A stretch of DNA of 64,000 nucleotides from Patescibacteria group bacterium (GTDB taxonomy: Bacteria > Patescibacteriota > Microgenomatia > UBA1400 > PJMF01): positions 72,333-136,332 of the forward strand of contig JAZQJV010000010.1 in the NCBI GenBank assembly GCA_045541795.1, given 5' to 3'. Numbering within the stretch: the stretch's first letter is position 1; each line of letters starts with the position of its first letter. The position numbers were made by a program, and so were the translations under genes. The notes beneath the pieces were generated by a model. That model saw only the letters and a list, made by a program, of their open reading frames with translations, was not told where the DNA came from and did not search any database. Below are positions 21,714-60,257 of this stretch, piece after piece.

Positions 21714-24700
21714 AACTTTTTGCCCGTTCCCTCACCAAACTCACCCACTGCCTCACACTAATAGCCATGTGCGCCTTTATCTTTACTAGCCGTTCTGATG
21801 CCGTCTGGTGCGCCGCTCTCAATAAAGACATCACCTGCCCCAATGGCGATCATCCGCCAGGCTCCACGCCTCATCTAGGCAATCTTTTCACGATCAATCG
21901 TACCACTCTGCGCGCCGCCATCCGTTGTTGTGGCGGCAGTGTCAACTTTGACCGTCTCTGGGTACGCGAGGAAAGCCAAAGCGGCTGGCCGGGTTTTCAT
22001 GTCCACTGGGATTATGATACCAATAGTTCTGCCAGCTGTTACACCAAAAATTTTAACCTCCACATCCTCAATGACGACTGCCCAGGCTTAGGTAAAGTCA
22101 GCTCATGCCCCAAATCCGGCTCAAAATCTTATTTAAGCGGCGCGGATTATTTTGAATATTTATGCCGTGATGCTTGTCAATTGTATGAAGGTATGACTGG
22201 TCGCTCTTGTAGTGAAATTGTCGATCAGGTCAGCTCCCCCTTAGGTACAGCTGATACAGACCTGGGACGTAATGACGTCGCTTTTGCTCTCGGTGATCCC
22301 GATCGGCGCAAAATCTTGCAAGGTGCCGTGGACGGACTCAATGAATTACTACCATATGCCAACGTAGAGCATTGTGGCCTTACTAAGGTGAGCTCGCTCA
22401 ATCTCGGCCGGGTGGACTCTCAAATTGACTATTTATTTGACCGCGGCACTGGCGATAATTTTTGTCTGGAAGGTGAGCTTTGCTGGGCCAGACGAGAAAC
22501 TGCCTACTCGCAAGCCAAACGTGACCAAATGCGTATCCAGATGGATTACACCTGTGAGGCTTACAAATATGCCTATTACACGCCACAAGCTTCTGATAGA
22601 TTTTTGGAAGAATGGAAAAGTATCTATAGTAAAACTAAAAGCAAAACTTTTTATTATGACCGCAAATACGCCTCTGGCGACAGTGTTTACTCTTCTCGCA
22701 CTAGTGGTAGCGCCTCGGTGAGCTTTAGTGAAAGCGGACTTTGCCGCATGGCTGGCGACAAATGGATTTGCCAAAACGAGCCCAGTGGTGAGTATCCCGG
22801 CAGTCTACAAGGAGCCAAAAATAATATGAACAGCGCTGCTGACTACTACCGTAATTCTGCCAATCAAGATGCCAACTGGTACAGCAGTGAGGTCGGCAAA
22901 ATGGAAGGTTATATCCGAGGCAATACTTCTTGCCGCAATAATGCCAATAATAAAATTAACTCCAACTGTCCTTACGTCGACTCCGCCTACAGTTCTTACC
23001 GATCTGCCTACAACAGTTATTCTTCCTGTTATTCTTCTTGCCGCAACCAAAAAAACGCCGACGGCAAATATAAAAGTAGCAGTGAATGTGACAGCCAATG
23101 CAATTACGGTCACGTCCAGTCGCTCTACAATACTTACAGCAACTATTCCAGTAATTGTTCCTCTGGTCGCTCCGAGTATAATACTTGTGTCAGTAATTAT
23201 AATTATGCCGTCAATAATATCGGCGATTACTCGTACCGAGCGGCCTTTTACCGTGCCCGTGCTGAGCTATATGATGAGCACAAACAAGACTACAACAACA
23301 ATAATGATTACTTCCAGTACCGTATCTACTACCGGGTGGGGCAGATCACCGCTTCCTACGGCAACATCAATTGCGCCAACAACAAGTATTACGAAGGGCA
23401 AAAATTTGGCGATGATCACTGGAAACCTTACTATACACAGTGGTACTCTCACTCATACAATCGCGATACTGCTGTCAGCAACTGCCGCAGCATTACGCGG
23501 TCTAAAGGCTACGATCATTGTATTGAGGCGATTGACGAGCTCCCACGTCAAGTAAGACTTTACAAATATTCCCGTGAATGGTCTGAGCAGACTGGCAACG
23601 ACAATTACTACTGCACCAATACCAGTACCACTGTCTGCTCTCCTTCCACCAAAAACGGTGGCTGTCACACCAATCCGGAACGCTCCTACATCAATATCGG
23701 CGGCAACTATTACTACACCAACGGCCTCACCAAGCGTACCGACGATAAAACTCCGCACACCTGGAGCTATAACGGCACCACCATGAACGTGCGCTGCTAT
23801 AAAAAAAGCCGACTGGAAACAAATGATGACATCGAATGGATGAAATCACACATTTCGCTACCAGGTTTCATCGAGTCGTATATCAAGCCGCAAGTTGCCC
23901 TGATCATAAAACGCAAAGACGCCTACTACAAAACTATTCCGGCTAAAAGTGGCGGCGGCGATCCCAGCAATGCTTGGTTTGAGTCTTGGCGCAAAGCCGG
24001 CGGCACCAATCTATGTTCAAACAAAACCAGCATCAATACTCGCGGTTGTGTCGCTGTCAACCTGCTGCAAAGTTGTCTTAATAAAGCCAACTCCATGATG
24101 CAATCCAATACTTCAGACGTCACTCATAAATCCGAAGGCATCCTCACCACTTACCAAGATAACCATGCCTGTACCGGCGATAATGATGCCGTCTCCTCCT
24201 CACGCTGTTATAAATTTGGTTGCTACGTGCAGCGGGAAACCTGCCGCAACGTCGACCAGTTCTTCGTTGACTACGATGAAGTCTGTAGTGTGGGTACTTA
24301 CGCCGGCAGTAAGAGCCCGGATATTTATTACAATCAAGGAACCAATAAAAACCTTACCTGCCGCAATTGCGCTGCCGCAAATTCTTGTAGTCAGGCAGCG
24401 GCACAAGGTTACCGCTATGATCCGCTGGCTTCTAATCCCAATAATACTAATGTCATCATGGGCTTTTTGATCGATGATAAAAACGCCTCCCGCTATAAGA
24501 CGATCCTCACCAGCTGTCCGGCTGGGCAGCACTGCGAGACAAAAACTTTGAGATATAAAGGCAAAACCATCGGCAACTGTCTCGTCGTCACCGACTCTGG
24601 TGTCACCTGTGCCAGTAACGGACTCAAAGACTTCTCTTCCAACGCTTGCGCTTACAGGAGCGACGGCCACAATACTCCGGTGCCACGCTATATTAATGAA

Positions 24701-39430: not shown

Positions 39431-40255
39431 TCAAACCGAGGTTTGCACAGGCAATTTCTCATCTACTTCTTCCTCTATAATTCGCGGCCGGGGAGAAACC
39501 TCATAAGCGAGCATCGACTCATCTGTCGCTCCCTCCAGTAGTCCAGCCTTAAAATCCGCCGCGGCAGCCATCACTTTGGCTGCCAATTCATCGTTTTCCA
39601 GCCGCTCCAAGGCAATTTCTGCTGCTTCTTGTTGCGCCTGTTGTTTATTTTTCGCCGAACCTTCAGAAATCACATACGGGCCGATCGCCACCCGCACTGT
39701 AAAATGTTTATTGTGATCTGGCCCAATTTCGTGCAAGACGTCATAAATCGGCGTTTCGTAGCCCAAAGCCTGCACCAATTCCTGGAACAAGCTCTTAGAG
39801 TCCTTATAAGTGCCTTGCTCCATTATTTCTTCAAACTGATTTAAAATCGCCTCATAAATGAATGCTCGCGCCGTTTCAAAACCGCGATCCAGATATAACG
39901 CCCCCAAAATCGCTTCCATCGTGTCTGCTAGCAAAGCCTCATTGTCACGCCCGCCGCTCGCTTCCTCGCCTCGGCTAAGGTAAAGCATTTCCCCCAGCCC
40001 TAGCTCCCGGGCAACGTCACTTAAAGTGGTCGTTTTCACCAGCGTGGAGCGGATCGCTGTCAGCTTTCCTTCTGGCGCATCTGGCAGCTGATTATACAAA
40101 AACTCCGTCGTCACCAATTCCAGCACGGCGTCACCCAAATACTCCAACCGTTCATTGGATTCTCGAGCGGCCGTGGCATGTTCGTTGATGGCGCTGCGGT
40201 GCGTCAAAGCGGTCAAAAGCAAAAGTTTATTTTTGAAATCCGGGATTTGCATCAC
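39431..40255 (-). CDS. rnc: Ribonuclease III
   Basis: Signature ERLEYLGDAVLELV plus a C-terminal dsRBD. Confidence 0.9.
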   Translation of the reverse strand: MMQIPDFKNKLLLLTALTHRSAINEHATAARESNERLEYLGDAVLELVTTEFLYNQLPDAPEGKLTAIRSTLVKTTTLSDVARELGLGEMLYLSRGEEASGGRDNEALLADTMEAILGALYLDRGFETARAFIYEAILNQFEEIMEQGTYKDSKSLFQELVQALGYETPIYDVLHEIGPDHNKHFTVRVAIGPYVISEGSAKNKQQAQQEAAEIALERLENDELAAKVMAAAADFKAGLLEGATDESMLAYEVSPRPRIIEEEVDEKLPVQTSV

Positions 40256-40560
40256 CCTAAATCCTTTTCTTCCAGCACCAATTCTAGTAAATCGGCGACA
40301 GTCTGGCCTTCATCATTTTCTAATATCTCCTCATACAAAGACTCGCCGTTGAGCTCGTATTTACCCGCTAACTCATGGGACAGCCGCTTCAAATCATACT
40401 CGGTCAGATTTAAGTCATTATAAAGTTGAGAGTCTTCCCGGATGTCCTCCAGACGGTTACCAGTCGAATCACTCAGTAGGGTACGCAGCTCGCCCAAGAC
40501 TTCCTGCCGCTCAGCCAGTGACGCTTTATCTTCTGGTAATTGACTAATCTCATCCCTCAT
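40252..40560 (-). CDS. Hypothetical acidic protein (ACP-like spacing but no phosphopantetheine Ser)
   Basis: 102 aa. DLNLTEYDLKRL resembles the ACP DLGADSLDTVEL helix II, but the Ser is replaced. Confidence 0.4.
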   Translation of the reverse strand: MRDEISQLPEDKASLAERQEVLGELRTLLSDSTGNRLEDIREDSQLYNDLNLTEYDLKRLSHELAGKYELNGESLYEEILENDEGQTVADLLELVLEEKDLG

Positions 40561-41623: not shown

Positions 41624-42016
41624 TTAGCGTTCCACGCCGCTTTGCCCAGCTTCCGGATTGATCAGTCTATAAGAAAGATTATCACTAGCTAAGCTGACAT
41701 CGCCCAAAAGCACCACTGCCGCTGACGGGATGCCATCCACCCGCCAAAAATTCTCCCGCCAGGCAGTCGCCTGTACCCATAATTTTCGAGCCAAGCCACC
41801 CTGAGCCAGCCAGACGTAAGCCCGCTCACCTTGTATATGCACGCTGTCAGCCGGCAAAATTACTTGTGTCTCACCTTCGCGAGCGTACACTTTTAAGGCT
41901 GGAATCCAAGATAAGACCGGGGAAAGCAGCGTCCGGCAGTTGCACCAAAACGAAAATGCCCAGATGACGCTCATCCAGACAGCCAATAAATGCCAGCCGC
42001 TTGCATTTTTAGACAT
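41624..42016 (-). CDS. Hypothetical exported/membrane protein
   Basis: 130 aa. N-terminal hydrophobic segment HLLAVWMSVIWAFSFW. Confidence 0.4.
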   Translation of the reverse strand: MSKNASGWHLLAVWMSVIWAFSFWCNCRTLLSPVLSWIPALKVYAREGETQVILPADSVHIQGERAYVWLAQGGLARKLWVQATAWRENFWRVDGIPSAAVVLLGDVSLASDNLSYRLINPEAGQSGVER

Positions 42017-42087
42017 AATGTAACTTATTATATCACACTATCTCAAAATGTCAAGTCTAGCTGGCATTACATCTAATAAGTAGAAAG

Positions 42088-43032
42088 TTAAGTAGTTGTC
42101 ATTACTCCAGAGTAAACTTCCCGCAGTGCCGCCAGGCTGGCTGTCATTTGTCCGCGTTCGGTCTCGTCCATATCAATATCCACCTGCTGGATCACACCAG
42201 CGCGTCCCACCACACAAGGCAGTGAGGCGTTCATCGGCGTTTGGCCATCATGAGCGTCAATGGTGACACTGACTGGAAGCACACTGCGTGCATCACTCCA
42301 AATAGTCCTCACGATCTTGGTGATACTCGCACCGATCCCATAATAAGTAGCTCCTTTAGAGTCAATAATCGCGTAAGCGGCATCCCGAGCTTTTTGGTAT
42401 GCTTCCAGCGCCTTTTCGCGTGAAAATCCTGGGAAATCCACTAATTTTTGCCCGCCGATGCTACTGCTAGAAACTACCGGGAAGCTGTGATCACCATGCT
42501 CGCCCAACACATAAGCATGGATAGAACGTGGATTGACCGGCAAAAACTCGCTCAGGTGGAAACGGAAACGGGCGGTATCCAAAAGCGTGCCGCTACCAAA
42601 AATCTGTCCGGGGCGAGCCGCTGGATAGACTTGAGTTGCTCTGTAGGTCATCAGGTCACAAGGATTGGCTACCATCAGCAGGATCGCTTCTGGCGCTGCG
42701 GCCATCAATTGCGGCACCATGCTGTCGACGATACTCAAGTTTTTGGCCGCCAGTTGTAAACGGCTCTCGCCTGGCTCTTGCGCCGCACCCGAACAAAATA
42801 CGAACACATCCGTACCAGCTAGATCATTATAATCATCGCTGATCGTGATTTTGGTCTTTTTTGAAAGCGTCATCGCGTGCTCTAGATCTAGTTTTTCGCC
42901 AATAAGTTTTTCTTTGTGACGGCCAAAAAGCGTAATTTCCTGACAAAAACCCGCCAGGACCAGAGCGTACGCCGCCGTCGCCCCCACTTTACCTGCGCCC
43001 ACCACGGTCACTCGAAAATAATCTGTCTGCAT
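42088..43032 (-). CDS. ldh: L-lactate dehydrogenase (LDH/MDH superfamily)
   Basis: VTVVGAGKVGATAAYAL Rossmann fold. Catalytic-loop motif LGEHGDHSF. Confidence 0.8.
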   Translation of the reverse strand: MQTDYFRVTVVGAGKVGATAAYALVLAGFCQEITLFGRHKEKLIGEKLDLEHAMTLSKKTKITISDDYNDLAGTDVFVFCSGAAQEPGESRLQLAAKNLSIVDSMVPQLMAAAPEAILLMVANPCDLMTYRATQVYPAARPGQIFGSGTLLDTARFRFHLSEFLPVNPRSIHAYVLGEHGDHSFPVVSSSSIGGQKLVDFPGFSREKALEAYQKARDAAYAIIDSKGATYYGIGASITKIVRTIWSDARSVLPVSVTIDAHDGQTPMNASLPCVVGRAGVIQQVDIDMDETERGQMTASLAALREVYSGVMTTT

Positions 43033-43033
43033 T

Positions 43034-44077
43034 TTACCTTTCTGCAGGGGTCAACACCCCATAATACTCCAACATTCGTGCTAGTCCCTCACGAAACGGC
43101 ACGACAGGCTCCCAGCCCAAAAGCGTTTTGGCTTTAGTAATGTCTGGCTGGCGCCGCAGCGGATCATCGGCCGGCAAGGGCTTATAATCTATCATCTCGC
43201 TATCACGGCCAGTGATCTGGTTGACGATCTGCGCTGTCTGCAAGACAGTAAATTCGCCCGGATTACCCAAGTTGACCGTCTCGCCGGCCAAATCACTACT
43301 GATAAATCTGATGATCCCCGCCACCAGATCGTCAATATAGCAATAAGAACGAGTTTGGCTACCATCACCGTAAACCGTTAATTTTGTGCCCGCCTTCACT
43401 TCACTGATAAATTGCGGTAAAATCCGCCCATCGTGCAAATCCATGCGCGGCCCGTAAGTATTAAAGATCCGGATAATTCTCGTATTTAAACCAAAATCCC
43501 GGTAGAAAACACCGCAAATCGTCTCGCCTAGACGTTTGGCTTCGTCATAACAGCTGCGGATACCGTTAGGATTGACATTACCCCAATAAGTTTCTACCTG
43601 GGGATGTATCTGCGGATTGCCATAAGCTTCACTAGTACCGGCAAAAAGCAAGCGCGCTGCGGGTGCATTGGCCGTCAACCACTGACAAATATTATGCAGC
43701 GCCCAGGTATTGACCAAATAAGTCTCCACCGGGTGTGCTTGATAACCTGGCGGTGATGCTGGTGAGGCAAAATGTAAGACTACATCCACCTGACCGTAAG
43801 TTTTTTTGATCTCATCCAAGTGCTGGAGCAACAAGGCTTGGTCATTAAGATCAAACTCCAAAAACTGAAAGCGTTCATGACTGCGGACCGCCCGCAAATT
43901 GTCTTTGTGACCCGTAATATAATTATCAATACCGATCACCTGAGCGCCAGCACTCAGGATTCGTTCCACTAAATGCGAACCAATAAATCCTGCTGCACCA
44001 GTAATAATTACTACTTTTGAGTTAAAAAATTGCTCATCTTGCATCTGTCCCTTCTTATAGCAATCTTGCTCTTTCAT
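43034..44077 (-). CDS. NAD-dependent epimerase/dehydratase, UDP-glucuronate decarboxylase (UXS)-like
   Basis: ITGAAGFIGSHLVERIL...YDEAKRLGETICGVFYRDFGLNTRIIRIFNTYGPRM matches the UXS/ArnA decarboxylase family. Confidence 0.7.
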   Translation of the reverse strand: MKEQDCYKKGQMQDEQFFNSKVVIITGAAGFIGSHLVERILSAGAQVIGIDNYITGHKDNLRAVRSHERFQFLEFDLNDQALLLQHLDEIKKTYGQVDVVLHFASPASPPGYQAHPVETYLVNTWALHNICQWLTANAPAARLLFAGTSEAYGNPQIHPQVETYWGNVNPNGIRSCYDEAKRLGETICGVFYRDFGLNTRIIRIFNTYGPRMDLHDGRILPQFISEVKAGTKLTVYGDGSQTRSYCYIDDLVAGIIRFISSDLAGETVNLGNPGEFTVLQTAQIVNQITGRDSEMIDYKPLPADDPLRRQPDITKAKTLLGWEPVVPFREGLARMLEYYGVLTPAER

Positions 44078-46394
44078 TCATTTCTGCTTCTATTTCTTCC
44101 CGATCGCGGCCGTATTTGAGCCTGGAGATTTGTTTGATCGCGGCCGCCAGTTGCGGATTCATCCTAGCCTGCACTTGCGCCATATCTTTTTCCAGCGACA
44201 TTGAAAAAGGCGGTACCGGCTCATTTTTGACGATCGTTTTCACATAGACATGATATTTTTCAATATTGGTCAGGTCAGTCTCAGTAAATATCGGGGCAAA
44301 TTCATGCTCGAGGTACTGCGCATCCGTCACTCCCACCCGGAAACTCACAATCGTCCCCACATTACCAAAGACGGCGTTGCGGATCTCATCATCTATTTGA
44401 GCAATAAACTGATTAGCGACAATCAGATTTAAACGGTACTTGCGGGCTTCAGACAAAATGGTGGCAAAATCCTCCGTGGCGTAATTTTGGAACTCATCCA
44501 CGTACAAGAAGAAATCTTCACGCTGATCCATCGGCACATCCTGACGACTCATCGCTGCCGTGAGCACTTTGGGTACCAAAATCAAACCCAAAAACTTCGC
44601 GTCCTCCTCACCCAAAATACCCTTAGATAAATTGCACAAAATGATCTTTTTCTCATCCATCGCCCGGCGGAAATTAAAGGCGGACACCGGCTGGCCGATA
44701 ATATTGCGCATCGTTTTATTGGTCACAAACCGGCCAAACTTAGAAACAATATAATCCAACACCTCTGATTTGTGGAAATCTGATGTCTGAGCCATCTGAT
44801 CTGTCCAGTAACGTTTTACCATTGGATCATCAATCTGCGGCAGCAATTCCTCAACAAATTTATTATCAGTGATAGCCCGGACTAATTCAATAAACGTCGC
44901 TCCCGGACGATACATGATCGTCAGCATCACGTTGCGGATCGCGTGTTCAAAACGAGGGCCGATAATACCTTGATGATGCGGATCATAAAGTTTATACATC
45001 AAGCCAATCACGCTCCCGACGACAAACTGTTTTTGTTCTTCGGTCTCGGCTTCCATGATATTCATCCCCAAAGGCCGAGCTAAGTCTGAAGGATTAAAAT
45101 AAATCACGTCTTCCGCTCTCTCTGGCGGGATCATCTGCAAAATATCCTCCACAAACTCACCATGCGGATCAATGGCGCACACGCCCGAGCCGGCTTCAAT
45201 GTCTTGCAAAATCATTTCTTTCAAAAATTCTGATTTACCAGTACCAGTTTTACCGATAATGTACATATGCCGACGCCGATCTGGCAGCGACATGTAAATA
45301 TTGCGCACATCGCCTCGATAAATTGATTTACCCAAAAATAAACCGCTTTCGGGAATTTCCCGCGGTGCAGGGGCATTTTTGGCATACAAAAACCGGATAT
45401 GATGCGTTTCTACCGTTTTATTGGGGAAATGAATAATGGTCGCCAGCTCTTCAGAATTAAAAGTCAGCATCCCGCTGTCGCCAAAAAAAGCCGGATAACG
45501 ATAAACAAAATCCTTCATGAACAGACGTTTAAAAGGCACGAGCGCTTTTTGTAAACCCGTATAAGCAGTATCAAACTGCGAGAAACTAGCGATGATGTTT
45601 TTGAGATGTGACTCCGCCGAGTAGCGATCAGGACTACACACGCACACACGGATGATGACCTTAAAGATGGATTTATCCACCTTAGCCAGCATTGATTGAT
45701 CTTCCTTAGACTCCGTCTCATCGTGGACGCGAGCCGTGCTTTCAGACTGACGATCTTTGCGTTTTTCGATCTGGCGGATCACACGCCGCCGGAAACGGTC
45801 GCCTGCAGGCTGGATCACAAACTGGACAATTGCTCCTTCATCCGTATTCATTTTGGACAGTGCAGACGTGAGGCCTTGCAAGCCATCATTAGCTAACTCT
45901 TTGTAAGTCTTGATCGGCATGCGATTATCCAAAGCTTTTAGCCTAGCAAATGCCACCTGGCCGGTCTTCGTCCAGATATTTGGAGACACCACCGGCATAA
46001 TATCGGCTTCGGGGTAGCTGGCGTGAATACTTTTTTCGATCAAATCACGAAGTTCCCGCGGTAAATTCACATAAAAAGCAATGTCTTCTTTTTTTGCCAC
46101 CACTTCAATCGTAAAAAACGGCGGTCTTTTAATCAGCGATTCCCAAGTAGTCAGCTGTAAAGAATGCAGCATATCAAACATCTGCTCAGCGGCTTCAATT
46201 TTCACCTCATTATCCTTCGGCAAACGGATCAGCAGCGTCTCCATTTCCTCAGATATTCGCCGCCGGCCGCGCGCGCGCCATAAATGGTATAAATAATAAA
46301 TAGTAAAACAAAAAACAGCGATATATCCAAATATAATAAGCACCCAGCTTACCAGTGCCCAAGTGTCAATATAGAAGTTAGGTTCCACTTGCAT
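44055..46394 (-). CDS. Membrane-anchored P-loop NTPase of the HerA/FtsK/TraD-VirD4 (DUF87-like) superfamily
   Basis: N-terminal TM helix. Walker A IIGKTGTGKSEF, Walker B FFLYVDEFQ, and a LNLIVANQ arginine-finger region. Confidence 0.55.
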   Translation of the reverse strand: MQVEPNFYIDTWALVSWVLIIFGYIAVFCFTIYYLYHLWRARGRRRISEEMETLLIRLPKDNEVKIEAAEQMFDMLHSLQLTTWESLIKRPPFFTIEVVAKKEDIAFYVNLPRELRDLIEKSIHASYPEADIMPVVSPNIWTKTGQVAFARLKALDNRMPIKTYKELANDGLQGLTSALSKMNTDEGAIVQFVIQPAGDRFRRRVIRQIEKRKDRQSESTARVHDETESKEDQSMLAKVDKSIFKVIIRVCVCSPDRYSAESHLKNIIASFSQFDTAYTGLQKALVPFKRLFMKDFVYRYPAFFGDSGMLTFNSEELATIIHFPNKTVETHHIRFLYAKNAPAPREIPESGLFLGKSIYRGDVRNIYMSLPDRRRHMYIIGKTGTGKSEFLKEMILQDIEAGSGVCAIDPHGEFVEDILQMIPPERAEDVIYFNPSDLARPLGMNIMEAETEEQKQFVVGSVIGLMYKLYDPHHQGIIGPRFEHAIRNVMLTIMYRPGATFIELVRAITDNKFVEELLPQIDDPMVKRYWTDQMAQTSDFHKSEVLDYIVSKFGRFVTNKTMRNIIGQPVSAFNFRRAMDEKKIILCNLSKGILGEEDAKFLGLILVPKVLTAAMSRQDVPMDQREDFFLYVDEFQNYATEDFATILSEARKYRLNLIVANQFIAQIDDEIRNAVFGNVGTIVSFRVGVTDAQYLEHEFAPIFTETDLTNIEKYHVYVKTIVKNEPVPPFSMSLEKDMAQVQARMNPQLAAAIKQISRLKYGRDREEIEAEMNERARLL

Positions 46395-46438: not shown

Positions 46439-46930
46439 TTAAGACGAGCGCAAATTTTCACTGCTCACGCCATATCGCGCCAAGCGCGCTTCGCGTCGAT
46501 ACAGTCTCGCCACGCTCAGTCCCGCCCATGTAGACGCCGCTTTAATCGCTCCGCCGCTCATCTTTTTGGCATCCGGCTCCGCATAAAAAGGATAACCGCT
46601 TTCATTTAAACGTCTCTGGAGTACACTCAAAGTCGGCTTAAGCGTTGCTTCCGTATATTTTTGGACTTCTTCCAGGCTATCATTGGCTGGAGCGCTCTCC
46701 CGGACGAGCTGCTGCCGGGCGGATGCAAGTTCTTGCGCGCTCGTTTGCTCGATTTGGGCTTGACGGGCGGCCTCATTTCCTGCGTTTACCGTCACTTCCG
46801 GCAAGCCAGTACCCGCAGTTTTTTCCACTTCACCAGGAAATACTTCCTGTGACACCATTTCTGGTGCCACCATACCGCCCATTTCTTGGTTTACACCGCT
46901 GCCGATCTGTCCACCCGCCAAATTATTCAT
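46439..46930 (-). CDS. Hypothetical protein
   Basis: 163 aa, Gly/Gln-rich N-terminus. Sits in an operon between pheT and the ATPase. Confidence 0.4.
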   Translation of the reverse strand: MNNLAGGQIGSGVNQEMGGMVAPEMVSQEVFPGEVEKTAGTGLPEVTVNAGNEAARQAQIEQTSAQELASARQQLVRESAPANDSLEEVQKYTEATLKPTLSVLQRRLNESGYPFYAEPDAKKMSGGAIKAASTWAGLSVARLYRREARLARYGVSSENLRSS

Positions 46931-48890
46931 GATTATCCTCTAAGCTGCCCACTAACTCACCACCACATTTACTCACTGCCGCCACAATTGCTTGGCGCAG
47001 AGGCTTAACTTCCTCCGTACTCAAGCTGCCGGCCTCTTTTTGATACTGGAAATGAAAAGTATAATGATCTTGGTAAATCTCGCCCAAGCTTACAGCCACA
47101 ACCAGATCAGACACCTGCTTAATTTTTGTCATCACCTCGCCGACGGCCGGCACCTGGTCAAAAGCAAAAGTCAGATCTTCACGGACTACCCCTCCTGTGC
47201 GCAGTTTCCCGCTGATCTGTACTGGCCCGGAAGCAGCCACCAATGTGGACATATCTATTTCGGCCGCGATCAGTTTTTGGTCAGTCTGGCTCACTTGCCC
47301 AAGCTCTTGCCCACCTACATAAATTTTCCCTGATTTATCCACATTTATTTCAATATTTGCCGCTTTGGCGATCAGCTGTAGCCACAAGCGCACTTGCCGG
47401 TAGGGAACAGGGGAGAGCAGACCCAAGCGTAATTTTTCCACCACCTTATCGGCAGTTGCGCCTGGAAAATAGACATTAGCCAGCTCAAAAATCCCAGCAG
47501 TACTATTATTACTGTCGCGGTTTTCCTGCCACACAGCCTCCAGACTTGGGATTAAGCTCTGGCGCAAATAAACTTTGTCTTCTGTCAGCGGATTTTCCAG
47601 CCGCAAGTACTTTTTTTCATCACCGATTTGCTCGCGGCTGACCGTAGAGTACGTATACACTTCACTCAAACCTTTGTCCACAAGCAAATGTTTTAACCGG
47701 TTTTCCAGAACAAAATCAAATTGCTCTTGACGCGGGATCTCCACTACCCGAAAATCCGTCCGGCTTGGCAACAAATGATAACCATAAATCCGTGCCACCT
47801 CTTCTATCAGATCTTCTTGGATCGTCACATCATGAGCCCGAAAAGAAGGCGCCGTCACCTGCCAGTATAATTCCTCTGTTTTATCCACCTGGAAACCTAA
47901 ATCCGTCAAAATTTTCTCTATGCGCGCCGGCGCAATTTCTACTCCCAGATAACGATACAGCCTTGACACATCAAAACCAATCGGCTCACGGGTCTGGCGT
48001 AGCCGCTCATTTTCGTAAGTATACACGCTGCTGGCAATTTTGGCTCCGGCCTCGCGCTGCAAAATCTGGGTGCCGAGCGCTAGCACTTCATCCGTCAAGA
48101 AAGGATCGACGTTTTTTTCATTTAAAATCGCGGCCACCGTACGGATCGCGTGGCTCATACTGGCCCGGCGCACTGTGGGTGCATCCATATTTTCCAGCCA
48201 AAAAAGCACCCGAGTAGTCTCTGGAGAAATCGCGGTATTAGCCGTCCCTTTTATTGCCGGCAAATCAATAATTTCTCCCTTATCATTTTCAAAAACTACC
48301 TCGCCGCCCACGGTCTCATGCTCCTCACCGTCTAGCGTTACAAATTTTTTGCCTTTCTCCGCTTGCTTGACGATAATTTTCCCGCCTAAGGCCATAATTT
48401 TATCGTAATCAAAAGTATGGCACGGATGCCCGAGTTCGTGAGTGACGTAGTTGGACATGTCGATAATAATGCCGTGACTATTTTGACCGATTTGGTGCAA
48501 ACGCTTGCGCATCCATTCTGGCGAATCAACGTTTTTTACATTATCTAGCACTACGCATGAAATTTTGTTGACGGCAAGAGTCTCCACTTGTATTTCTGGA
48601 AGAGGTAATTCTAAAGTCTGAGCTTTCCAGTCCATTTCCCGCTGCTGGGTCAATTTTTTGGGTTTCACTTTGTCGCCGGCGATCGCTGCTAGTTCCCGTG
48701 CTAGTCCCTTGATACACATGGAATCCACCCGGTTAGTAGTGATTTCGATGTCAAATACTTTTTCGCCGTCAATTTCCTCAATCCGCTCAAAAGAAGGCCC
48801 ATGCAAAGAGCCCAAAGCCGCCAGCTCTTCGCTCGTCATCGACGTCTCCAAATACTCACCCAACCAAGTCACCGGTACTAAAATGTTCAT
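46923..48890 (-). CDS. pheT: Phenylalanyl-tRNA synthetase beta subunit, short form lacking the N-terminal tRNA-binding OB domain
   Basis: B3/4 domain, B5 domain (DVTIQEDLIEEVARIYGY) and a C-terminal FDX-ACB-like domain. 655 aa. Confidence 0.75.
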   Translation of the reverse strand: MNILVPVTWLGEYLETSMTSEELAALGSLHGPSFERIEEIDGEKVFDIEITTNRVDSMCIKGLARELAAIAGDKVKPKKLTQQREMDWKAQTLELPLPEIQVETLAVNKISCVVLDNVKNVDSPEWMRKRLHQIGQNSHGIIIDMSNYVTHELGHPCHTFDYDKIMALGGKIIVKQAEKGKKFVTLDGEEHETVGGEVVFENDKGEIIDLPAIKGTANTAISPETTRVLFWLENMDAPTVRRASMSHAIRTVAAILNEKNVDPFLTDEVLALGTQILQREAGAKIASSVYTYENERLRQTREPIGFDVSRLYRYLGVEIAPARIEKILTDLGFQVDKTEELYWQVTAPSFRAHDVTIQEDLIEEVARIYGYHLLPSRTDFRVVEIPRQEQFDFVLENRLKHLLVDKGLSEVYTYSTVSREQIGDEKKYLRLENPLTEDKVYLRQSLIPSLEAVWQENRDSNNSTAGIFELANVYFPGATADKVVEKLRLGLLSPVPYRQVRLWLQLIAKAANIEINVDKSGKIYVGGQELGQVSQTDQKLIAAEIDMSTLVAASGPVQISGKLRTGGVVREDLTFAFDQVPAVGEVMTKIKQVSDLVVAVSLGEIYQDHYTFHFQYQKEAGSLSTEEVKPLRQAIVAAVSKCGGELVGSLEDNHE

Positions 48891-49306
48891 AATGTCACTT
48901 CTTTCGTCTCAATTTCTTCTATTTTACCACAGTTTGCTTGAGTTTGGCCGCTCAATTTTACGCTTACAAACCGCTGGATCTCCTCCATCATCTGCTGATT
49001 ATGCATTACATTAATACTAGGGCGCAAGACAAAAACATAGTCGCCAGGCTGCAATAAATCCTGAGCCAAGGCTTGACTGATGACCGCCGTCGCGCGTCTT
49101 TTTGCCTGGTGACGCCGCACGCTTAAGGGAAACGTCCTTTTGCGAGCAATCACAGCCACTTTGGCGCTTTCGCGGCCAACAACCCAAAAAATGCGGGCCC
49201 AGCGCATCCCCCAGCTACAACTGGTCTCAAAAAAGCTATCATCAATCCGGCTCGTGATGCGCCGCGCGCGTGCTAACATATAGCGTATTATACCAGATAA
49301 AATCAC
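48887..49306 (-). CDS. rnpA: Ribonuclease P protein component
   Basis: RITSRIDDSFFE...AKVAVIARKRTFPLSVRRHQAKRRATAV...GDYVFVLRP matches the RnpA basic motif. 4-nt overlap with pheT. Confidence 0.65.
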   Translation of the reverse strand: MILSGIIRYMLARARRITSRIDDSFFETSCSWGMRWARIFWVVGRESAKVAVIARKRTFPLSVRRHQAKRRATAVISQALAQDLLQPGDYVFVLRPSINVMHNQQMMEEIQRFVSVKLSGQTQANCGKIEEIETKEVTL

Positions 49307-49610
49307 TTTTTGCAGTCTGGCTTTGGACTATCACGCCAACACTAATATTTACTAAATCAAATAATATCTAAAAATCAATAATCAGCGCACAGTCAATCAT
49401 ATTTTGCCAGTAAAATACCTGGCAGCTGCGCCCAGTGAGTGCCAAAAATTGCCTTGCTTACCTGGGTGGGCGGCGGGGGAGAAAAGCCATGAGACGATAC
49501 CACGAGGGTCACACCAACTACTCAAACTATATTTTTGTGTACGTTTTTGCTCTCATTTTGTGAACACCTAGCGAGAAATGACCAAAAAGAGAAAATAGAG
49601 GGGTAAAATT

Positions 49611-49653
49611 CGTGAAAGTCCTATAATATTTTAAATATTATAGGACTTTCACG
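49611..49653. repeat. 43-bp near-perfect palindrome (21-bp arms) built around the TCCTATAATAT motif
   Basis: CGTGAAAGTCCTATAATATTT-T-AAATATTATAGGACTTTCACG, checked base by base. Confidence 0.8.
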
Positions 49654-49800
49654 TAAACATCCTATAATGTTTGCGGTAATATTATAGGATTTTCACCTTA
49701 AAGACCTATAATATTTCCAAAAAATTATAGGGACTTTAGGTTAAAATCCTATAATATTCTACCTCGAGTGAGCGTTAACATCCCATAATAAGATAATTAT
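49611..49800. promoter_or_regulatory. Cluster of about 8 copies of the (G/A)TCCTATAATAT(T) motif in alternating orientation within the rnpA/gyrB intergenic region (candidate oriC or regulatory array)
   Basis: Copies begin near 49617, 49637 (rc), 49668, 49682 (rc), 49703, 49728 (rc), 49755 and 49785. Confidence 0.5.
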
Positions 49801-50135
49801 CAAAATTCCAGGTGTGGCCCTGCTATTTTTGGTCACTCACAGCGTCAACAGCCCATAGTTTGCGCCGCCGTCCCCAAACCCCTCAAATTTTGCGGAGAAA
49901 AATTACGCGCCGCCCGCCCCGCCGCGCGTCCCGCGCGTCGTGATCACCGCATATTTTGCAATATTAATTAATAGTAAAGTCGATTTTGTCATCGTTATTA
50001 ACGCAAAATTTGCGGTAATAACTGTGTCAATTCTCGTTCTCCTTATACTGTCTATTTTCTCACGAAATGCCCCATTTCCGGCCGCAAAAGCCCGAGCTTG
50101 ACAAAATCCCACATCAATGATAAAATCATGATCCT

Positions 50136-55768: not shown

Positions 55769-55777
55769 GTGGTATAA
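55769..55777 (+). promoter_or_regulatory. Extended -10 TGGTATAAT promoter for tRNA-Ala
   Basis: About 21 nt upstream of the tRNA 5' end. Confidence 0.5.
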
Positions 55778-55798
55778 TACCCACATTAACAATTTAAG

Positions 55799-55982: not shown

Positions 55983-56918
55983 TCATTTTTTGAGCGAATG
56001 AAACTGCTCATGCGCCTTTTTCAGCTGCGGCTTGGTGACATGAGTATAAATTTGCGTCGTGACTACTGATTTATGACCTAGCATTTCCTGCACATCGCGC
56101 AAATTAGCCCCATTACTGATCAAATCAGTCGCAAATGAATGCCGCACTCCGTGCGGAGAAAGTTTGACTGGCAATTTTGCCCGGCGTGAATATTTATCCA
56201 CAATCCGCTGCACACTTCTAGCCGTCAAACGCATTTGTTCACCATCGCCCAACGGATTTTTCTCCTTTTTACCGCCAAAATGCACAAATAGGGGAGACCA
56301 CTCATCTTCCCTACTCCCCAACCACTGTTTGATCCAAAATTTAGCCCGTTCACTAATAAAAACCACTCGTGGCCGGCGACCTTTACCAATCACCCCCAGT
56401 TCACCAGATTCCAGATCTAGTTGTTCACGATTAAGCGCTACCAGTTCGCTTACCCGTAATCCCGTAGAATACAAAAGCTCCAAAATTGTCCGGTCGCGAA
56501 GGCCCGCCTTTGTCGTCAGATCTGGAGTTTCCAGTAATTTCAGGATATGTTCACTATCTGTATATCTCATGGGCAAAGGATCTGCCTTTGGCAACTCGAT
56601 TTTCTCTGGAGCCAGCGTTTTCACGTCATTTAGGGCCAACCACTTGAGCAGACTGCGGATGGCAATTAGATAGTAGCCTTGAGTTTTCTTTGACAGCGGA
56701 TCGCCGTTTTCTGTTTTAATCCGGCTTAAAGCCAACCTATAACTGCGCATCCCGTCCAAATCCAAACGTCCGATATTATCTATCCCTTTACGCTCCAACC
56801 AGTCTACAAAATGGTTTAAATAGTGCCGATAGTTGCGTACTGTCAACCGGCTGACATTGCGCTCAACTTCCAAATGTTCCAAAAATAATTCTTTGACAAC
56901 GACTGGTTTTGTTTCCAT
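55983..56918 (-). CDS. Tyrosine site-specific recombinase, XerC/XerD family (could be chromosomal Xer or an island integrase)
   Basis: 311 aa. C-terminal catalytic region ...RHSFATDLISNGANLRDVQEMLGHKSVVTTQIYTHV (R-H-R-Y residues). N-terminal SAM-like core-binding domain. Confidence 0.8.
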   Translation of the reverse strand: METKPVVVKELFLEHLEVERNVSRLTVRNYRHYLNHFVDWLERKGIDNIGRLDLDGMRSYRLALSRIKTENGDPLSKKTQGYYLIAIRSLLKWLALNDVKTLAPEKIELPKADPLPMRYTDSEHILKLLETPDLTTKAGLRDRTILELLYSTGLRVSELVALNREQLDLESGELGVIGKGRRPRVVFISERAKFWIKQWLGSREDEWSPLFVHFGGKKEKNPLGDGEQMRLTARSVQRIVDKYSRRAKLPVKLSPHGVRHSFATDLISNGANLRDVQEMLGHKSVVTTQIYTHVTKPQLKKAHEQFHSLKK

Positions 56919-57749
56919 AGTGCCATTGTACCACCAAAATCACGTTAAAATTGACGATTATTTGCGGCCGTGATTAATTTTAGACTAAACAACTATCATT
57001 TATAAAGTTCTAAGCCGTTTTTGGGGCATTTAAATCAATTCTGCCTGGAAACAAGATTAAAAGCCTAATATCACAGCTATCATTACGATGATTCTCACGC
57101 ACAGTTCAAATCATTCCACACTACAGCCACTGCCAACGTCACTACTGTCCGTCACCGCAAAAGTCACCCCTCTCTCCTCTCCAGGCTAAAAGGGGACGGC
57201 AGGGGAGACAATTGGAGCCGTCACGCCTGGTAAGCCAAGACCGATACCCAGAACTGATCACATTTGTAAGACCTTATAACGATATAAGCTAATTTTGGCC
57301 TCTCTCGACTGGGGAATAAGGGCCACCGTCCAGGCAAACTCGAAAAAAAAGATATTTACAAATTAAAAATTTACGTCGTCAAAAATCCCACAAATCCGTG
57401 ATTTCCAGGCAAAGTGTCGTAAAAGTTATATTGTGCGACACTCTCAAAACCCTACTCTTGAACATATTTTGCTTAAAAACGCTATTGCTGTCAGGAGAGG
57501 AGACAAGCAGACGTCCCTCTCTGAATGACAATTAAATTAGCGATCACGACGACACTATTTTGCAACTATAAAAACTAATGCAGACGGCTCTAAAAAGCTC
57601 AGGCCGCTATAACACGCCGTCACCAGGCGTAAATCAAGAGAAATCAGCCCAGTCCCAATAAGTTAATCTACCCTTCTCGAAACAAGTACCGGATAACATT
57701 CCAGAGGTAAACCGAGACGATTTCGGGTTATTTTTGCATAATTATCGCA

Positions 57750-58020
57750 AATTACTATATCAAACTATATCAATTTTAGACCAAATAAGAGTTTTCCACG
57801 GGGTGGAAAACTATATCAAACTATATCATTTCTCCAAACAAGAGCCTGTCACCAGGCAGAAGGCCATCAAGAACCCATCGATTCACACATCAACTTCTGG
57901 CCGTAAATCCGTATATTCTTGTTCGGGTTTTAATCGCTAAATTACTATAATTTACTATATCAAACTATATCATTTTCCATAGTGTCACTATATCAAACTA
58001 TATCATTTTTGTCACATTAT
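57750..58020. repeat. Iteron array: 19-mer ACTATATCAAACTATATCA (itself a doubled CTATATCA 8-mer) in 4 copies, flanking the 21-bp palindrome GTTTTCCAC-ggg-GTGGAAAAC (57791-57811)
   Basis: Copies at 57754-57772, 57811-57828, 57964-57982 and 57997-58015. Lies inside a roughly 2-kb ORF-free AT-rich region (56919-58877). Confidence 0.7.
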
Positions 58021-58861
58021 AGGCATTCTTGCCTGGAGAGCAATAATTACCGCAAAATTATCGCAGTCCTCTACTCTGTCTCCCCTCACCTACCAAAATT
58101 CACTACACTTAGTCCAGATCAACACCAAAATTTATAATTATTTGACTATTACCGCACGGCAATTATGCAAAGATATTAACTTTTGACTCTAAATACAGCC
58201 GCCAAATATCAAGTCTCACAGTACCTTTTCCAGGCGTTACTCCCCTACTTCACCAGATATACGCTACCATCTACCCGCCTTCTAACAATTTATTTACGCA
58301 CTATTGCTGCGGGACTGACTCGATTATTGCATGATTCCTATATTAATAATTATTAGTAATTATGCAATAATTAAATTCCGCAGTTTCGCCAAAACTGATA
58401 ATAGTTTTACACCACAAGAGTAATTTCTATTAAGTCCTTACAAAACACTCATAAGTACTCAAAAGTGCTAAAATTATAAATTTTAAAATTTTACCGATAT
58501 ATAGCTATTTTTTCATCACTTAAAAATTTAGCAGCGATTCCGCATGAGTGATAAAATTGGCCATTTATATCTGGAAATGACCTAATAAGTGAAAAGTAAG
58601 TTAATCATTGCTATTTTTTAGCTTTTCAGCCTAATTTTCTAGTATCCTAAAAATTTTTATTATTAATTTTATCAAACATTAAAAAATTCAATTTTCGCAT
58701 AAATGTAAGAAAAAAAATACTATATTCACGCACTATTACCGCAGATCTCAAGAAATTACCTGCTTCTGAAATTGCGCATTAATTAATTACCGCTTTTTAG
58801 CCCGTATATCGCCATCTTGCCGCAATTGCGCAAATTACTCCCCATCATCTCTTCCAAACGG

Positions 58862-58870
58862 TGTTATAAT
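58862..58870 (+). promoter_or_regulatory. Extended -10 TGTTATAAT 7 nt upstream of the ATG at 58878 (leaderless-type)
   Basis: gtgTTATAATagccgatATG. Confidence 0.45.
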
Positions 58871-58877
58871 AGCCGAT

Positions 58878-59648
58878 ATGCGTGAACGTGAACGTTTTGT
58901 CATTAGTGCCGTCTTTTTAGGTTTAGTTTTTTGGCTCACCCAACTCGTGCCGATTTCTTGGCGTTATCTCGGCATTGCTGGCTTTACGCTGATCACCTAC
59001 TTCGTCAGCGCCTGGACTTTACATAAATATCTCAAGTTCCACCACTGGGTGCTCTATCTCCCCCTCCCCGCTCTTTACTCCCTATTCATCGGCTGTTTTT
59101 ACTTTCTGCTGCCTACCAATTTCTGGAGTATGATTACCGTTTTGGGCCTTTTTTCTTTAGGCATGTACGCCCTCTTCCTTTCGGGGAACATTTTTTGTGT
59201 CGCCGAGCATGACAAAAAAATCCCGCTCACCCGTGTCGCGCAAAATATTATCCTCTTTTTTGCTATCATTATTTCTCTACTCGGCTGTCAAGTGATTTAC
59301 TCATTTTCCTGGCCGCTTTATGTCACTTTCCCGCTCGTCTTTTTGCTTCACTTTCACCTGTGTCTCACTACTGCCTGGTCCGTTGAACTTCAACCCCGCA
59401 TCTCCTTAGAGCTTTTCCAGCTAAGTTTTTTTGCCGCACTCTTAGTGGGTGAATTTGCGCTCGCCCTCTCCTTCCTACCGCTTGAAGGCTGGCATATTGC
59501 TCTACTGATCATGTCTACTTTTTACCTGATTCTAGGTATTTTGCAGGTTTTTATCGGCGATAAACTATATCGGCGTACTTTGCGGGAATACAGTTTTTTA
59601 GTCATCCTGATCATCTTAATGTACATTGCCATCTTTCCTGGCAAGTAA
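58878..59648 (+). CDS. Hypothetical polytopic integral membrane protein (about 8 TM)
   Basis: 256 aa, strongly hydrophobic throughout. No recognizable motifs. Confidence 0.5.
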   Translation: MRERERFVISAVFLGLVFWLTQLVPISWRYLGIAGFTLITYFVSAWTLHKYLKFHHWVLYLPLPALYSLFIGCFYFLLPTNFWSMITVLGLFSLGMYALFLSGNIFCVAEHDKKIPLTRVAQNIILFFAIIISLLGCQVIYSFSWPLYVTFPLVFLLHFHLCLTTAWSVELQPRISLELFQLSFFAALLVGEFALALSFLPLEGWHIALLIMSTFYLILGILQVFIGDKLYRRTLREYSFLVILIILMYIAIFPGK

Positions 59649-59662
59649 TCGATTATTAACGC

Positions 59663-59692
59663 AAAAAATGCGGTAATAATTATTACCGCAAA
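59663..59692. terminator. Palindromic hairpin TGCGGTAAT-aatt-ATTACCGCA preceded by an A6/T6 tract; likely terminator for yebC (minus), possibly bidirectional
   Basis: 22-bp perfect palindrome at 59669-59690. The T6 tract on the minus strand is 59663-59668. Confidence 0.5.
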
Positions 59693-59717
59693 TTATGCAA
59701 TAATTTATTTCTCTCCC

Positions 59718-60257
59718 CTACTCTACAGCAGCAAATACGCCTTCCACGCCTTCTACCTCAGAGAGTTTTTGGATCAGTTCATCAAGCTGAGCATGCGTCG
59801 CCTCATCAATTTCCAGCGGCATCGTCACTTTGTATTCTTGAGTTTGCTTATCAAAACTAAACATATACCCAGCCGCCCCAGGGCCAGCCATACTACCACC
59901 GCCACGGACTAGTATTGCTTTTAATTCACTACTGGTGCGATTAGTGTTATCTGTGACCGCCATGATCATCATTCCGACCCCACCAGGACCAAAAGCCTCA
60001 TAAGTTATTTCTTGCATCGCACCGCCAGCAATTTTGCCGCAACCTATATCAATCGCTCTTTGGATCTTATCTTTCGGCATATTGGCCGCTTTAGCCTTTT
60101 CTACCCACAACCTTAAAGTGGGATTAGAATTGACATCGCCGCCGTTTTTGGCGGCAATCCTGATATTTTTTACGAGTCCTGTAAAAATCTGAGCGCGCTT
60201 GGCGTCTTCAGCTCCTTTTTTATTTTTGATATTATTCCATTTACTATGTCCAGACAT
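59718..60257 (-). CDS. yebC: YebC/PmpR family DNA-binding regulator (short, 179 aa)
   Basis: MSGHSKWNNIKNKKGAEDAKRAQIFTGL...NPTLRLWVEKAKAANMPKDKIQRAI. Confidence 0.8.
   Translation of the reverse strand: MSGHSKWNNIKNKKGAEDAKRAQIFTGLVKNIRIAAKNGGDVNSNPTLRLWVEKAKAANMPKDKIQRAIDIGCGKIAGGAMQEITYEAFGPGGVGMMIMAVTDNTNRTSSELKAILVRGGGSMAGPGAAGYMFSFDKQTQEYKVTMPLEIDEATHAQLDELIQKLSEVEGVEGVFAAVE

Follow-up and report, generated by a model that had tools for sequence, protein, structure and literature searches.

A conserved gene-free locus with direct repeats beside a DnaA box in Patescibacteria looks like an undescribed protein-binding control site

Described repeat loci and the gap

Direct repeats beside a DnaA box are known from iteron origins such as those of pSC101, RK2, P1 and Vibrio ori2. 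A comparable arrangement is found in a gene-free gap of a Patescibacteria genome, at positions 56919-58877 of the 64,000-nucleotide stretch of contig JAZQJV010000010.1 that was analysed (the window). The gap shares with the iteron origins direct repeats of ~19-23 bp in one orientation, an adjoining DnaA box and AT-rich DNA. It differs from them in having no adjacent rep or rctB-like gene, in being main-chromosomal and syntenic across its clade, in showing no similarity to plasmid or phage records and in having only one or two 15-bp sites in distant relatives; moreover, its repeat has a 10-bp substructure and not a 22-bp register.

Other described loci share different parts of this anatomy. The E. 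coli datA and DARS1/2 loci and the DnaA-box clusters of B. subtilis are, like the gap, non-coding and off the guanine-cytosine (GC) skew switch, and combine a consensus DnaA box with sites for a second protein, which are putative in the gap. However, the locus has 1-2 canonical boxes compared to 3-5 or more in these loci, and the sites next to its box are direct repeats rather than proven IHF or Fis sites. The response regulators CtrA (Caulobacter Cori) and MtrA (mycobacterial oriC) have sites set among DnaA boxes, and the half-sites of the gap, one turn apart beside a DnaA box, appear to resemble these in geometry, whereas the present locus is off the origin and has no linked regulator gene. 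Short clusters of direct repeats spaced by helical turns also occur in centromeres of the ParR/parC type, but no parM, parR, parA or parB is nearby at this locus and there is no parS-like sequence in the gap. The XerS/difSL, XerH/difH and cer/psi modules resemble it in having a Xer-family gene near an imperfect dyad with a 6-bp centre and putative protein-binding DNA alongside. Unlike these, the locus is off the terminus, its dyad is 0.5-3.7 kb from the gene or has no gene, its arm symmetry differs from that of dif, and its putative accessory region is much further from the core. The accessory sequences of cer and psi are ArgR/PepA or ArcA/PepA sites.

Literature searches turned up no description of the element, and it was found in none of the Rfam, plasmid, phage and viral collections searched. 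We propose that the gap is a cis-acting DNA locus where a putative repeat-binding protein and DnaA would assemble at a non-origin site, most plausibly for chromosome maintenance, and we hold this tentatively, with a probability of roughly 0.45. Patescibacteria genomes are very compact. Non-coding DNA of 0.7-2.9 kb that stays at one place across a clade, its few islands frozen while proteins fall to 28 % identity, must have a role. The 15-mer beside a DnaA box and the 24-bp dyad give a concrete target for finding replication, recombination or segregation proteins in organisms not yet accessible to genetics. The locus is also a caution for automated origin prediction, since the box-plus-iteron anatomy here lies off the skew switch.

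Conserved islands of the gap

The sequence-only reading of the window had found no credible open reading frame (ORF) in the gap, and this held: the longest is 68 aa, and recoding of TGA or TAG as sense gives frames of at most ~90 aa, nothing long. The long frames obtained with TAA as sense only reflect the scarcity of G on the plus strand (14 %); the GC content of the gap is below that of the genome. Pseudogene remnants, which that reading had named as a possible explanation of the gap, were rejected, as six-frame fragments gave no Pfam match and the translated comparison with relatives gave matches confined to the nucleotide islands and spread over several frames simultaneously. The main features are as follows.

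56919-58877, no strand: gene-free gap between the Xer-like recombinase gene (minus) and the DUF5656 gene (plus)
57416-57439, no strand: 24-bp imperfect dyad GTCGTAAAA-GTTATA-TTGTGCGAC (9-6-9), the most conserved island; 24-mer GTCGYAAAAGTWATATTGTGCGAC
57722-57734, plus: TTCGGGTTATTTT island of module A, with a terminator-like flag on the plus strand
57754-57772, plus: iteron pair 1, made of two CTATATCA units at a spacing of 10 bp, with the deep core TATCAAACTATATCA
57791-57811, no strand: palindrome GTTTTCCAC-GGG-GTGGAAAAC, two inverted DnaA-box-like 8-mers (TTTTCCAC)
57810-57828, plus: iteron pair 2, 56 bp from pair 1 (56-57 bp in L008 and L011)
57922-57931, plus: TTCGGGTTTT island of module B, opening the duplicated 55-nt module 57922-57976
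57954-57972, plus: iteron pair 3
57987-58005, plus: iteron pair 4, 33 bp from pair 3, a spacing kept in L008 and L011
58066-58094, plus: pyrimidine (CT)-rich tract after the last iteron, also in the relatives read here, CACTCCTCTACTCT conserved in alignment A3

Related loci (designated by L numbers) were fetched via DUF5656 homologues (99 % down to 28 % identity) and by a metagenome scan with the double-iteron pattern (n = 15), and all compared sequences come from related genomes of uncultivated, Microgenomates-like Patescibacteria. A gene-free gap of 0.7-2.85 kb was present at the equivalent place in all 15 loci. Compared to the nearest relative, L007, the gap has diverged by 4.1 %, and the third codon positions of the flanking genes by 2.7-9.3 %; because the two are comparable, most of the gap is weakly constrained spacer. 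With distant relatives only short blocks could be aligned. An unbiased k-mer census of 13 loci returned only four islands, each common to at least 10 of them. In the orientation of the window these are the 24-mer, TTCGGGTT with a T-rich run (57722 and 57922), AG-TTTTCCAC and the core TATCAAACTATATCA, and their order and orientation were constant across loci, except that the 15-mer core is inverted in L036. The flanking DUF5656 protein has diverged to 28-99 % identity among the loci sharing these ordered islands. The sequence-only reading had allowed that the region might be junk if it were not conserved; the islands proved to be conserved in 15 loci.

Six of the 11 contigs found with the double-iteron pattern (L017, L018, L020, L022, L023 and L026) were dismissed, as they carried neither the other islands nor the flanking genes; they look like unrelated 10-nt tandem repeats. 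In two of them, L017 (1245-1410) and L022 (1646-1710), arrays of a 10-nt unit, AACTATATCA, were seen together with few ORFs and none of the other islands or flanking genes. Many metagenome contigs end inside the gap (L009, L010, L012, L013, L015, L028, L030, L033 and L035), L012 and L015 exactly at an iteron. The assembly probably failed there because of the repeated 23-mers and the AT-rich DNA, although strain-level variation or insertions at the site may be an alternative cause.

The repeats noticed in the sequence-only reading were confirmed as stated and are far beyond chance. The 19-mer ACTATATCAAACTATATCA has exactly four copies (57754, 57810, 57954 and 57987), all on the plus strand, with 0.01 expected by chance, and the 8-mer CTATATCA has eight copies in the gap and nine in the whole window, where 1.6 are expected. 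The iteron takes the form TATCA-N5-TATCA, i.e. direct half-sites one helical turn apart, a geometry that appears to resemble that of winged-helix dimers of the OmpR/PhoB type. The IHF consensus WATCAANNNNTTR was not seen by eye, the only way it was sought, as the core has WATCAA and not TTR. The window, like L008 and L011, contains four direct repeats of 19-23 nt. In distant relatives there is just a single 15-mer, or two of them at a distance of 23-25 bp, and across all loci the copy number varies from 1 to 8. In the clade of the window the module of TTCGGGTT and iteron is duplicated and each site is now a double 8-mer. The 55-nt modules 57922-57976 and 57722-57776 are 78 % identical (repeat family D3), and the distance between the two modules varies in L008 and L011, whereas the pair spacings are constant. 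CT-rich tracts equivalent to that at 58066-58094 lie 3' of the iterons in distant relatives.

The iteron is probably read as duplex DNA, because one relative, L036, carries the 15-mer core perfect but inverted (7000-7010 region, gap position 1294), while the box and CT-rich tract beside it are of the usual kind. Recognition as duplex DNA rather than as an RNA motif is favoured by this inversion, by L034, in which the spacer is altered to TATCATTCTATATCA with both TATCA pentamers intact, and by the copy number of 1 to 8. Two observations on the box, described below, favour it likewise: the uncompensated mutation of the right palindrome arm in L008 and L011 and the single box of distant relatives. 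Within the window a 7-nt core inverted within conserved flanks was also noticed (57217-57240 compared to 57616-57639). An iteron-like sequence with three mismatches, ATTATATCACACTATCTCA, lies at 42027-42045 in the short intergenic region between 41624-42016 and 42088-43032.

The palindrome described in the sequence-only reading as having arms that fit the relaxed DnaA box does sit between the first two 19-mers, overlapping the second by 2 nt, but its left arm, TTTTCCACG, is one mismatch from TTWTNCACA and its right arm decays in relatives. The left arm is the clade-wide conserved box AG-TTTTCCAC (57790-57799), and relatives have a perfect TTTTCCACA or TTATCCACA at the same position; TTTTCCACA is an established DnaA-box variant in the origin-prediction literature. 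An exact TTWTNCACA was found in nine lineages (L011, L021, L027, L029, L031, L032, L034, L036 and L037; L038 repeats L037 and was not counted as a separate lineage), and in most of these the box is 12-13 bp from the iteron core. The earlier description of iterons plus a DnaA box thus stands, as the repeats are conserved and adjoin an exact box consensus in most relatives. The right arm has mutated in L008 and L011 with no compensating change and the left, box, arm is intact there, and distant relatives carry a single box only. Since the right arm mutates while the box arm stays, it is the box and not a hairpin that is under selection; the palindrome itself is not the conserved feature. In the window perfect TTWTNCACA has seven sites in 64 kb, which is the chance expectation; they are unclustered, and none is in the gap. 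TTWTCCAC has 1-2 sites per gap across the loci.

The 24-mer is present in 15/15 loci with at most five changes and has a single copy in the window, where none is expected. The dyad consensus across loci is GTCGYAAAA-GTWATA-TTGTGCGAC, with arms matching at 7-8 of 9 positions. A second copy of the 24-mer, needed for an invertible segment, was not found in the window. At the second island, TTCGGGT is 27 times commoner within the gaps than in the DNA outside.

In 13 of the 15 loci a Xer-like gene is found 0.5-1.2 kb from the dyad. In the other two the 24-mer, box and iteron are all present; L034 has no recombinase gene within 6 kb, and in L039 the recombinase is 3.7 kb off, behind three genes. Because these two keep the elements without a nearby recombinase, the locus is tied to its position beside DUF5656 and not strictly to xer. 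In distant relatives yebC, (ruvC), DUF5656, the gap and xer are co-directional, and the distance from the stop codon of DUF5656 to the iterons beyond it is 50-280 bp; in the clade of the window DUF5656 is inverted and ~0.9 kb of extra AT-rich DNA lies between it and the iterons.

In the proposed mechanism the gap would be a clade-wide, vertically inherited cis-acting locus, a long drifting spacer holding four short islands in fixed order. The iterons would most likely be duplex-DNA sites of a putative, highly conserved repeat-binding protein, the first of them ~two helical turns from a consensus DnaA box, and this protein and DnaA may assemble side by side into a nucleoprotein complex away from the origin. 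Duplication of the module in the window's clade would have taken the sites from 1-2 copies of the 15-mer to four double copies, strengthening cooperative binding. The complex could most plausibly act in chromosome maintenance by binding or titrating DnaA away from the origin, as datA, DARS and the B. subtilis DnaA-box clusters do. Its role might instead be architectural, in support of the 24-bp recombinase-type dyad close by, or it might regulate an unseen transcript.

Alternative explanations

Several points weigh against a complex of DnaA and a repeat-binding protein. Protein binding, DnaA as one of the binders and the role of the complex are all matters that we infer, and the conservation counts are not independent events because all the sequences come from related genomes. 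With 1-2 canonical boxes, each locus has fewer than datA or DARS. On the opposite strand the iteron reads TGATATAGT, which comes close to the consensus of the extended -10 element in this organism, so that it may have a promoter role. The outer pairs flanking the 24-mer covary like those of a hairpin, with a score of 0.229 compared to 0.138 for shuffled alignments (3 of 500 shuffles as high), and TTCGGGTT with its T-run resembles a plus-strand terminator in most loci. The terminator-like TTCGGGTT and the hairpin-like flanks of the 24-mer would be compatible with an RNA gene in the interval from the recombinase gene to the iterons.

That the locus gives rise to unannotated non-coding RNA, whether one RNA or several, or a longer RNA spanning several islands, is an unlikely explanation, though it survives best of the alternatives. 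Such an RNA could, for example, be a plus-strand transcript of ~250-450 nt running from upstream of the 24-mer hairpin, with its 16-nt invariant loop, to a TTCGGGTT(T)n terminator. Besides the covariation, it would account for the fixed order and orientation of the locus and for the hairpin that is closed by CGGG, with a T-rich tail after it, in most loci; the upstream partner of CGGG is variable and the loops are large. By alignment and by the blastn block 246-553, a further inverted repeat is conserved in closer relatives, and its T-G oppositions would, read by eye, pair only in plus-strand RNA.

57163-57209, plus: CT-rich/G-rich inverted repeat GTCACCCCTCTCTCC...GGGGACGGCAGGGGAGAC, structure read by eye

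Against an RNA, the 24-mer stem pairs equally on either strand, a strand choice based on wobble pairs being tied at 100 compared to 101 paired cells, and the z-scores of the folding energy, +2.4 to -6.6, agree neither between homologues nor between strands. No sigma-70 promoter was found consistently upstream of the 24-mer, the low GC and the 14 % G of the plus strand speak against an RNA, and the inverted 15-mer of L036 would be left unexplained. The sequence-only reading had suggested known structured RNAs as occupants of the gap, which the Rfam 15 covariance models did not bear out: the only match in the window was tRNA-Ala, the best match in the gap had E = 1.5, far below the gathering score, and the gaps of 12 relatives gave no match.

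The dyad could instead be the core site, dif-like or that of an integrative element, of the adjacent single Xer-type recombinase, with the iterons and box as accessory sequence. Judged from the sequence, a Xer role of the 24-mer is a serious rival or possibly a companion function, not an established one, and as a full explanation of the locus it is doubtful. The 9-6-9 dyad has the core architecture of tyrosine-recombinase sites, a Xer-like gene is close by in most loci, and the neighbouring operon was ancestrally yebC-ruvC. The single-recombinase systems XerS/difSL and XerH/difH keep the dif site beside the gene (PMC5357621). However, neither the window nor most relatives show a skew switch here, and the dyad is therefore not at the terminus. 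Dyad and iteron are retained in L034, where the recombinase is absent, and in L039, where it is 3.7 kb off, and the iterons are 300-700 bp from the dyad, beyond the accessory-arm distance of cer and psi. In the validation of dif sites by inner-arm complementarity, positions 7-12 compared to 17-22 are asked to give more than 4 of 6 pairs (PMC3025954); by direct reading the 24-mer falls short of this with 3-4 of 6.

It is considerably less probable that the iterons are a tandem array of extended -10 promoters (TGATATAGT, minus strand) driving a leftward transcript, with the DnaA box a little downstream of the start as operator. TGATATAGT does fit the TGnTAnAAT elements that precede xer, DUF5656, tRNA-Ala and gyrB by 6-18 nt, and a promoter scan gave several minus-strand matches on the iterons. 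On the other hand, the fifth hexamer position is an invariant G where the gene promoters of the window have A, the whole 15-mer is conserved and not the -10 alone, and the motif is reversed in L036. The recombinase, moreover, has its own proximal, probably leaderless, promoter, because an extended -10 sits 6 nt before its ATG.

We regard it as very unlikely that the gap is an origin, whether a chromosomal oriC, a resident plasmid-type oriV or an origin firing in one direction. A DnaA box adjoining AT-rich direct repeats, with AT-rich DNA nearby, is origin anatomy, and the origin-proximal genes rnpA, gyrB and gyrA are within 8 kb. The bulk GC skew is nevertheless negative over all 64 kb, and the top-strand skew at third codon positions (GC3) is negative in every gene, in either orientation, on both sides of the gap. 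The flanks of the relatives likewise have skew of the same sign, with a weak hint of a change in L034 only. As GC3 skew keeps its sign across both flanks, the gap is neither oriC nor terminus under ordinary bidirectional replication, and the skew gave no choice between the gap and the region upstream of gyrB, which the sequence-only reading had proposed to decide in this way: the rnpA-gyrB gap has no GC3 switch either. In L034 (6784-12783) the GC3 skew ranges from +0.17 to +0.44 towards DUF5656; on the opposite side, where the genes have no Pfam domains and may be foreign, it is about -0.08, so that this signal is uncertain.

The 1-2 boxes are few for an origin, and dnaA, dnaN, rep and par were not found among the scanned ORFs. 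Outside the domain scan were 40252-40560, 44055-46394, 46439-46930, 46923-48890 and 48887-49306, the last two being pheT and rnpA by the gene calls in L007. A DnaA-trio register was not seen, by eye only. The idea of a plasmid or phage origin did not survive, as there is no adjacent rep gene and blastn gave no match in the plasmid and phage collections; in viral contigs only single chance 19-mers were found and composite patterns had no match. A partition site fared no better, with no par genes among the scanned ORFs and no parS in the gap within three mismatches.

It is more improbable still that the locus is both origin and terminus of a chromosome replicating in one direction only. Such a chromosome would show a box and AT-rich repeats at the start, a dif-like dyad and Xer gene for dimer resolution, and skew of the same sign throughout, and thus this reading fits the locus. 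However, we know of no bacterial main chromosome that replicates unidirectionally. As stated in a passage of PMC7858055, circular chromosomes replicate bidirectionally and only plasmids may replicate unidirectionally.

Decayed or junk DNA, i.e. old pseudogenes or a dead mobile element with chance repeats, can be practically discounted: most of the gap does diverge like third codon positions, its length varies from 0.7 to 2.85 kb and many metagenome contigs break inside it, but four near-invariant islands keep a fixed order across very divergent relatives, and there is neither a Pfam match nor translated similarity beyond the islands.

Flanking genes and other repeats of the window

Locally the genes and the gap run in the order rnpA, gyrB, ppa, gyrA, tRNA-Ala, xer, gap, DUF5656 and yebC. 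GyrB places the genome among uncultivated Patescibacteria, with the nearest named relatives in the Microgenomates group and Woesebacteria. The flanking genes and the extended -10 elements are as follows.

55983-56918, minus: Xer-like tyrosine recombinase gene, 311 aa, Pfam Phage_integrase and SAM_1
58878-59648, plus: DUF5656 membrane protein gene, which the conserved locus always adjoins
56925-56933, minus: extended -10 TGGTACAAT, 6 nt before the ATG of the recombinase, its position conserved in L008, L011, L014 and L029
58862-58870, plus: extended -10 TGTTATAAT, 7 nt upstream of the DUF5656 ATG
55770-55780, plus: extended -10 element of tRNA-Ala
50118-50126, plus: extended -10 element of gyrB
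58300-58720, no strand: most AT-rich part of the gap, only in the clade with DUF5656 inverted, poorly conserved
58043-58065, plus: ATAATTACCGCAAAATTATCGCA, two ATTAYCGCA copies spaced by 11 bp

The recombinase matches the XerC/XerD models over its full length with ~230 bits, under the equivalog cut-offs. The -10 elements of xer and DUF5656 are only 6-8 nt from the ATG, which suggests leaderless mRNAs. Because each flanking gene has an extended -10 promoter of its own close by, its transcription does not require the distal islands.

DUF5656 is convergent with yebC in the window's clade (58878-60257) and co-directional with it in L021, L027, L031, L032, L036 and L037; ruvC stands between the two in L034 only. 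YebC is truncated to ~180 aa in the lineage of the window and many relatives, and has 244-259 aa in L034 and L039. Elsewhere in the window, the large ORFs 10884-15644 (1586 aa) and 21710-27388 (1892 aa) have no Pfam domain at E below 1e-5. A tRNA-bounded island was considered and rejected, as the 3' end of tRNA-Ala has no direct repeat and only the window-wide ATTACCGCA recurs.

The ATTACCGCA-type motifs pointed out in the sequence-only reading are present in the gap (58046, 58148 and 58735, plus variants), but they are window-wide, mostly intergenic, and not specific to it. Further ATTAYCGCA copies lie at 58148-58156, 58735-58743 and 58786-58794. This motif is confined to the window's own clade and absent from distant relatives, elsewhere in the window ATTACCGCA is partly in terminator-like hairpins, and it is not part of the conserved element. 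Near-identical palindromic units of ~28 nt, TTATTAACGCAAAA(N)TGCGGTAATAA, were seen at 49995-50025 and 59652-59690; they belong to the ATTAYCGCA family and resemble dispersed repeats of the repetitive extragenic palindrome (REP) type, and the unit at 59669-59690 would form the yebC terminator hairpin. GCCTGG/CCAGGC (CCWGG core, often CCAGGCWAA) has nine copies in the 1.2 kb of 57043-58235. Although the GC is lower there, its density is 4.6 per kb compared to 0.87 per kb elsewhere in the window, and the gaps of L008, L011 and L032 show a similar enrichment; the motif might serve for methylation or binding.

That genes otherwise abut, as the sequence-only reading had it, is broadly true, except that a second long gene-free region with its own repeats lies between rnpA and gyrB (49307-50135). 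It contains a perfect palindrome of 43 bp, CGTGAAAGTCCTATAAT...ATTATAGGACTTTCACG (49611-49653), several more CCTATAAT/ATTATAGG pairs, a very GC-rich block at ~49850-49940 and, at 49522-49532, an 11-nt match to the iteron core, TCAAACTATAT. Its CGTGAAA and CCTATAAY motifs are also found beside the DnaA box at the iteron loci of L031, L036 and L037.

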